This document shows, in pieces, positions 61,974 to 62,029 of a stretch of 64,000 bases of DNA (positions within the stretch are counted from its first letter, which is position 1; each line of letters opens with the position of its first letter). The notes under the pieces were generated by a model, which saw only the letters and a list, made by a program, of their open reading frames with translations, was not told the origin of the DNA and searched no databases. Where the stretch lies: NCBI RefSeq assembly GCF_016026235.1, contig NZ_CP065613.1. The stretch is one strand, 5' to 3'. The DNA comes from Escherichia coli (GTDB taxonomy: Bacteria; Pseudomonadota; Gammaproteobacteria; Enterobacterales; Enterobacteriaceae). Position numbers and translations under genes: made by a program.

Positions 61974-62029
61974 ATCTTACAGTTGTAGTTATTATCGCAA
62001 GAAGTATTTTAGTCTTACAATTGTAGGAA
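61974..62029. promoter_or_regulatory. Two putative EvgA boxes in the yfdX-ypdI divergent promoter region
   Basis: ATCTTACAGTTGTAGTTA (61974..61991) and GTCTTACAATTGTAGGAA (62012..62029), both close to the EvgA consensus, 100-150 bp upstream of yfdX. Confidence 0.55.

Follow-up and report, generated by a model that had tools for sequence, protein, structure and literature searches.

Two EvgA-type boxes in the yfdX-ypdI spacer of Escherichia coli as candidate parts of two back-to-back promoter modules

The divergent spacer between the yfdX and ypdI genes of E. coli, which is 295 bp in length (positions 61877-62171 of the window, i.e., the whole 64,000-nucleotide stretch of DNA that was analysed), houses two EvgA-type boxes with a start-to-start distance of 38 bp. 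These boxes probably belong to two back-to-back EvgA-dependent promoter modules, not to one shared operator: box 1, the weaker of the two, would form part of a module firing toward yfdX, while box 2, the stronger, would form part of a module firing toward ypdI, the latter representing a probable EvgA-dependent promoter that is as yet uncurated. According to this proposal, activation of EvgS by mild acid would bring dimers of phosphorylated EvgA onto both boxes, both promoters would be activated from upstream, in a class-I-like position, and box 2 may additionally help to load the weak box 1. The sequences of these elements and their statistical strength, conservation and geometry come from the present analysis; the direct activation of yfdX and the co-induction of ypdI are taken from the literature. 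Box 2 and the control of yfdX by EvgA are already known, and the present work makes modest additions, i.e., box 1 as the likely canonical yfdX site, a putative ypdI promoter module, a spacing rule and a copy-number polymorphism, which leave the overall picture of the EvgA regulon unchanged.

Sequence and genomic setting of the two boxes

The window carries, in this order, emrY and emrK (minus strand), evgA and evgS (plus strand), yfdE, yfdV, oxc, frc and yfdX (minus strand), ypdI (plus strand) and yfdY (minus strand). The evgA-evgS operon (51230-55442, plus strand; coordinates mapped onto the window from the annotation of a 100%-identical record) encodes a response regulator, the presumed binder of the boxes, and a sensor kinase, and is located ~10 kb from the yfdX-ypdI spacer. 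The spacer is flanked by yfdX (61241-61876, minus strand), a known EvgA-activated gene whose product belongs to the Pfam YfdX family, and by ypdI (62172-62447, plus strand), which encodes a 91-residue lipoprotein without a Pfam family.

The EvgA box has been described as an 18-bp inverted repeat, TTCYTACA-N2-TGTARGAA, inducing yfdX and yfdWUVE (Masuda and Church 2003, as cited in PMC3720670). It has furthermore been reported that yfdX is directly activated by EvgA-P, and that its promoter, PyfdX, is employed as an EvgA reporter, being essentially silent at pH 7 and induced up to 60-fold at pH 5.7 (PMC5706723). With regard to ypdI, an evgS-constitutive mutant (evgS S600I) exhibits a log2 fold change of 2.75 for this gene and of 6.97 for yfdX (PMC4283999, Table S4), the EvgA iModulon includes b2376 (ypdI) along with emrKY, yfdE to yfdX, ydeO, ydeP and yegR (PMC10833566, supplement), and glutathione exposure raises ypdI 5.5-fold alongside yfdX, yegR, ydeO and emrK (PMC5811628). 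Johnson et al. reported that no new EvgA sites were found in front of the genes strongly induced in their study, and the unit table of the PMC10833566 supplement holds no ypdI transcription unit. Our literature search, which did not reach the primary EvgA binding papers, returned no account of two boxes, of a ypdI promoter or of binding of EvgA at ypdI, and yielded neither reporter nor mutant results for ypdI.

Box 1 (61974-61991; ATCTTACAGTTGTAGTTA) matches the 18-bp EvgA consensus used for scoring (TTCYTACANNTGTARGAA) at 15 of 18 positions, its three mismatches leaving 7/8 matching positions in the left arm and 6/8 in the right arm, while box 2 (62012-62029; GTCTTACAATTGTAGGAA) matches at 17 of 18 positions, with a single mismatch. 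A preliminary description of this spacer had presented the two boxes as 18-bp inverted repeats spaced 38 bp apart. Their sequences and spacing are as described, and box 2 is a good inverted repeat, with 7/9 pairs complementary, but box 1 proved to be a poor palindrome, in which just 4/9 pairs are complementary (TACA..TGTA only) and the right arm is degenerate. Box 1 is therefore better described as a strong left half-site accompanied by a weak right half-site.

Matches to the consensus with up to three mismatches were observed four times in the whole window, versus 0.57 expected, and all four are located in EvgA-linked spacers: box 1, box 2, a box in the emrK-evgA spacer (50988-51005) identified in the consensus scan, and a box upstream of frc (60980-60997), which represents a perfect consensus match and whose promoter is built like the box 1 module of yfdX. 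In addition, a symmetrised weight matrix was built from five other EvgA sites (those of safA, ydeP, yegR, frc and emrK), which had been found by consensus scan of K-12 loci (L050 and L051) and of the window, both boxes under study being excluded. Among the 63,983 window positions scored with this matrix, box 2 (19.1) ranked third and box 1 (14.9) fourth, the background maximum, i.e., the best unrelated position, being 10.9, while a site as good as box 1 was encountered in 0.17% of dinucleotide shuffles of the spacer (P 0.0017). At the level of sequence, both boxes are thus confirmed as non-chance EvgA-type motifs, and their assignment to EvgA in the preliminary description is substantiated by the consensus and matrix matches and by the presence of evgA-evgS in the same window. 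A third 'copy' of the repeat at 61890-61903 was rejected as a box because it is missing from the top matches of the matrix.

Promoter layout of EvgA targets

The layout of EvgA-dependent promoters was derived from the single-box promoters of safA, yegR, frc and emrK, read in gene-sense orientation, with yfdX and ypdI left out. Common to these four promoters are the 18-bp box, a TCYKATT element at +43 and a -10 hexamer at +70/71; expressed as gaps, the box is followed by 25 nt, by the TCYKATT element beside the -35 position, by 20-21 nt and by the -10 hexamer. Counted from the start of the box, 70/71 is the -10 offset that suits all four promoters best (circular-shift permutation: summed score, P 0.002; minimum score, P 0.0006), and it places the centre of the box near -74. 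Few promoters make up these sets, and some of them are paralogues (safA and ydeP, frc and yfdX). The TCYKATT pattern was derived post hoc from the training promoters, although its application to the yfdX-ypdI spacer is a test independent of this derivation. The pattern TCYKMT is present at offset 43 in all training promoters (background frequency 0.0017 per position), and the variants found at offset 43-49 across promoters are TCCTATT, TCTTATT, TCTGATT, TCCTCTG and TCTTATG. In the frc promoter, for example, the element (60948-60954, minus strand) stands at the fixed distance of 43-49 nt from the box start; it was also observed at 43-49 nt in ydeP, and accompanies every EvgA box examined. To judge by its letters, the TCYKATT element looks like an EvgA half-site.

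The same spacing of box, TCYKATT element and -10 hexamer as in safA, yegR, frc and emrK was found in the yfdX-ypdI spacer, in both directions. Toward yfdX, box 1 is accompanied at offset 43-49 by TCTGATT (61942-61948, minus strand), which adjoins the predicted -35, and at offset 71 by TATGAT (61915-61920, minus strand), the best-scoring -10 of the segment and the top -10 of 117 offsets, which is paired with the -35-like TTCTCA (61937-61942, minus strand) and predicts a transcription start at ~61908. Toward ypdI, box 2 is accompanied at offset 43-49 by TCTTATG (62055-62061, plus strand) and at offset 70 by TATTAT (62082-62087, plus strand), again the best-scoring -10 of the segment and the top -10 of 117 offsets, with a predicted start at ~62094-62095. 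Each strand of the spacer has exactly one TCYKMT: on the plus strand it stands at 62055 (start of box 2 + 43), on the minus strand at 61948 (end of box 1 - 43). When the pairings were swapped, the -10 candidates for yfdX via box 2 and for ypdI via box 1 ranked 51 and 95 of 117, respectively, with nothing at the canonical offset, and box 2 read toward yfdX has neither a -10 hexamer nor TCYKATT at the canonical offsets. With all positions relative to +1 predicted from consensus elements, box 1 would be proximal for yfdX (centre near -74.5), while box 2 would be centred near -73.5 for ypdI, as the proximal box, and near -112.5 for yfdX, as the distal one; the Cappable-seq supplement contains no transcription-start entry for the yfdX-ypdI coordinates.

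This layout bears on several proposals of the preliminary description. Co-regulation of both divergent genes by EvgA, which it considered possible, agrees with the finding of the EvgA layout toward yfdX as well as ypdI, and ypdI as an additional EvgA target is plausible in view of the box 2 geometry and the public induction data; ypdI is, however, not a new candidate, since its co-expression with the EvgA regulon is already on record. The notion that the boxes are shared by both promoters is not what the geometry points to, in which box 1 suits the yfdX promoter alone and box 2 the ypdI promoter alone. Nor does the geometry suggest that the 38-bp spacing serves cooperative binding: 38 bp corresponds to 3.62 helical turns, which would set two dimers ~137 degrees out of phase, so that simple same-face contact is not favoured and the two sites are neither on the same face nor contiguous. 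Moreover, half of the 20-bp gap between the boxes is free of sequence constraint. Cooperativity between the boxes, e.g., through DNA bending, is possible.

The yfdX-ypdI spacer resembles the other EvgA promoter regions (ydeP, safA-ydeO, yegR, frc and emrK) in that the same motif is located upstream of EvgA-induced genes and beside evgAS. Unlike the other EvgA regions examined, it is the only one with two boxes within 40 bp, its boxes apparently face opposite promoters, the right arm of box 1 is degenerate, and two to four boxes are present depending on the strain. The sequence CTCTCTGATT is common to the frc and yfdX-box 1 promoters, at an identical offset. The safA and ydeP promoter regions (L050 4072-4200 and 6731-6860) were noted to be clearly paralogous from the box through the -10, as are those of frc and yfdX-box 1, and EvgA regulon promoters therefore seem to have been spread in part by duplication.

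Natural variation and box copy number

Upstream regions of yfdX were collected from complete E. coli genomes, from one GTDB representative and from 35 metagenome contigs, the latter being retrieved via the yfdX start codon as an anchor and hence independently of the boxes. The metagenome scan was included because a YfdX search of genome contigs had yielded, besides E. coli, no more than one Yersinia locus and six Buttiauxella loci, and thus no other Escherichia species. Seventeen distinct Escherichia haplotypes were obtained, together with one copy from Yersinia vastinensis. Across the 17 haplotypes, 4 of the 32 consensus-specified positions in the 56-bp feature are variable, as compared to 11 of the 24 positions in the central NN and spacer (Fisher P 0.007). 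All four varying specified positions are outer or degenerate ones, and the core CTACA-NN-TGTAAGA is invariant in both boxes in the 17 Escherichia haplotypes, while the central NN displays up to three different bases and the spacer adjoining box 1 is 40% variable. Variation that spares the half-sites and not the NN is the pattern expected of real EvgA sites.

Conservation extends to the other promoter elements. On the ypdI side, TCTTATA/G is kept in all Escherichia haplotypes and TATTAT is invariant in all haplotypes, and the combination of box 2, TCTTATG and TATTAT is conserved throughout the Escherichia haplotypes, even in the divergent L002 and L041. Both promoter modules are likewise intact in all Escherichia haplotypes and in the alleles with three or four boxes. 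The inter-box spacer (61992-62011), which together with the box 1 core constitutes the 38-bp unit duplicated in the latter alleles, is highly polymorphic in the half nearer box 2 (62001-62011), and TTATCGCAA (61992-62000) is invariant.

The number of boxes was also found to vary. A 38-bp tandem duplication gives rise to a 3-box allele in ~414 of ~5,412 complete genomes (~7.6%), and a 4-box allele is represented by one genome, that of strain IBS28 (multi-box allele regions: L011, 425-518; L052, 256-387). A query for the reciprocal deletion among complete genomes found no 1-box allele, the identity bands of this search leaving room for at most ~2 unexplained records. Hybrids of box 1 and box 2 make up the extra boxes (GTCTTACAATTGTAGTTA, matrix score 10.7), and the 38-bp unit would expand by recombination between box cores. 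Outside their 14-bp cores the two units of the 2-box allele do not match, and box 1 therefore does not represent a recent copy of box 2. Both proximal geometries persist in the 3- and 4-box alleles, in which the 38-bp insertions would shift box 2 to ~-150 (3-box) and ~-188 (4-box) from yfdX.

A broader reading, which we put forward tentatively, is that EvgA promoters follow a fixed three-part grammar of inverted repeat (centred near -74), half-site-like TCYKATT element and -10 hexamer, that the yfdX-ypdI spacer consists of two such units placed back to back, and that expansion of the 38-bp unit provides a natural expression dial. If so, variation in box number would tune acid-induced expression of yfdX and ypdI across E. 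coli lineages, and the 2-, 3- and 4-box alleles represent ready natural variants with which to relate site number to output. The spacing rule would furthermore offer a simple means of telling functional EvgA sites from mere motif matches. If correct, the assignment of each box to its own promoter would place ypdI, whose product is a small lipoprotein with a link to colanic acid, among the direct outputs of the EvgS/EvgA acid response, and would imply that the weak proximal box 1, and not the textbook strong box, is positioned to activate the widely used reporter yfdX.

Related systems and alternative explanations

Y. vastinensis lacks ypdI and has an arsC-like gene upstream, yet its yfdX is preceded by both boxes, again 38 bp apart; the persistence of two boxes without ypdI suggests that box 2 also matters for yfdX. 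The predicted yfdX -10 and TCTGATT are present in this species as well, the latter at the same offset. The E. coli-like yfdX-frc block of strain IP38594 (L003 2840-5400), whose YfdX is 83% identical, contains both yfdX boxes and a near-perfect frc box and lies directly downstream of an arsR/arsB/arsC-like arsenic-resistance cluster, the homology to E. coli stopping ~40 nt past box 2. By these features, the block looks like a product of horizontal transfer. A Limosilactobacillus vaginalis scaffold (L010, 241 nt) was also found to encode a fragment of YfdX with 100% identity to that of E. coli, probably as a result of assembly contamination.

Upstream of yfdX, the six Buttiauxella species possess a single good box, which occupies the position of box 1. 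They conserve TCTGATT at offset 43 and TATTCT at offset 71, but not a competing -10 candidate at offset 55. This box displays the canonical geometry only toward yfdX and not toward the divergent hdeD-like gene, indicating that the use of one box in both directions is not general. In these genomes (L004-L009, 400-6600) yfdX has an evgS-like hybrid kinase on one side and an hdeD/hdeB/gadB-like acid-resistance cluster on the other, and a conserved half-box, TCTGACRTCTG, was observed ~20 nt further upstream of the main box. In Klebsiella pneumoniae, the yfdX-hdeDB divergent region is controlled by RcsB and possibly by KvhA (PMC6394985). The E. coli locus is similar to it in that the yfdX promoter is located in a divergent acid-stress spacer beside an evgAS-like two-component system, a neighbourhood that Buttiauxella shares and combines with an EvgA-like box, but the divergent partner in Klebsiella is hdeD and not ypdI. 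RcsB half-sites exhibit the opposite arrangement to EvgA half-sites.

A further comparison is offered by BvgA of Bordetella, a close relative of EvgA which acts at the fha and ptx promoters. Dimers of this NarL/FixJ-type regulator bind contiguously, in ~22-bp steps, and, as reportedly shown by Boucher, Stibitz and colleagues, fha and ptx combine a high-affinity inverted repeat far upstream with weaker sites or half-sites that reach the -35 region. By analogy, the TCYKATT element beside the -35 could act as a weak half-site. The yfdX-ypdI spacer differs from the BvgA promoters in that its boxes are 38 bp apart, the DNA between them is unconstrained, and the second box apparently serves the divergent promoter.

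The reading of two back-to-back modules has to be weighed against several alternatives, of which one, possible though rather unlikely in our view, is that the spacer contains one shared operator, as in the preliminary description, with box 2 as a high-affinity common site for both promoters and box 1 as an auxiliary, low-affinity site that is filled cooperatively. Such an operator would be in keeping with the much better match of box 2 (17/18; 19.1 versus 14.9), with the retention of both boxes and of the 38-bp spacing in Y. vastinensis without ypdI, and with the stronger induction of yfdX, the latter also being a point against two modules, as yfdX is induced far more than ypdI despite its weaker proximal box. 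It is at odds, however, with the lack of a -10 or TCYKATT at the canonical yfdX offsets from box 2 (the swapped pairings ranking 51 and 95) and with the position of the box in the paralogous frc promoter and in the Buttiauxella yfdX promoters, which is that of box 1. It is also at odds with the 3- and 4-box insertions, which would push box 2 to ~-150 and ~-188, yet the 3-box allele is common, and with a spacing of 3.62 turns, which is off-phase for side-by-side contacts. There is likewise some chance, which we consider to be on the low side, that the rise of ypdI is indirect, proceeding via YdeO, GadE or SafA-PhoP, or through divergent yfdX transcription or relief of silencing nearby. The induction of ypdI is modest (log2 2.75 versus 6.97 for yfdX), membership of an iModulon denotes co-expression and not binding, the unit table of the same supplement (PMC10833566) has no ypdI unit, and the literature search found no published ypdI binding data, all of which would fit an indirect effect. 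Direct activation by EvgA is favoured by box 2, TCTTATG at +43 and TATTAT at +70, which stand at the exact offsets, each individually improbable, and all three of which are conserved in every Escherichia haplotype, L002 and L041 included.

Two further alternatives concern box 1 and its surroundings, and both appear improbable. A sigma-70-like promoter directed toward yfdX (61991-62020, minus strand) overlaps the boxes: its -35, TTGTAA, lies within box 2, the spacer measures 18 nt, and the extended -10, TGcGATAAT, is found at 61991-61999. On this view, EvgA would act from a -35-overlapping position or as a repressor. A promoter scan recovers this promoter with the TG extension, its start would fall inside box 1, and every haplotype, like the Yersinia copy, carries an unchanged TTGCGATAA. 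That invariance is nevertheless not significant at this divergence, nine invariant positions having a chance probability of 0.78^9, or ~0.1, as estimated from a variable-column rate of 0.22, and TTGCGATAA was consequently rejected as a constrained spacer element. Moreover, this geometry is absent from the other EvgA promoters, and the silence of PyfdX at pH 7 is unexpected for a near-consensus extended -10 promoter. Still more improbable, to the point of being nearly negligible, is the view of box 1 as a functionless relic, i.e., as a fortuitous match or as something left behind when the box 2 unit was duplicated in tandem. Although the 38-bp unit does duplicate in nature and box 1 is a poor palindrome (4/9 pairs), the match of just the 14-bp cores in the 2-box allele speaks against recent duplication, the chance probability is 0.0017, the diverged Yersinia copy has both boxes, the core of box 1 is invariant, the box has the canonical geometry toward yfdX, and complete genomes yielded no 1-box allele.

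Other elements were observed in the spacer on the ypdI side. The sequence AGAACTATTCTTA (62048-62060) was considered as an RcsAB-like box tied to colanic acid, but this reading was dropped because the position holds the TCYKATT element common to EvgA promoters; the presence of ypdI in the EvgA iModulon list only also argues against it. The segment at 62079-62120, in the predicted -10/leader region of ypdI, carries a 21-nt imperfect tandem repeat (ATTTATTATATCGATGTAAAT / ATTGATTAATTATATGTAAAT) with an overlapping palindrome, and TGTAAAT is repeated there two helical turns apart; judging by this pattern, the repeat may be a site for another regulator. Genomic SELEX of minor-sigma RNA polymerase holoenzymes has placed one peak in the yfdX/ypdI spacer (~2492430 in K-12, in the numbering of that paper) and assigned another to ypdI (PMC5493296).
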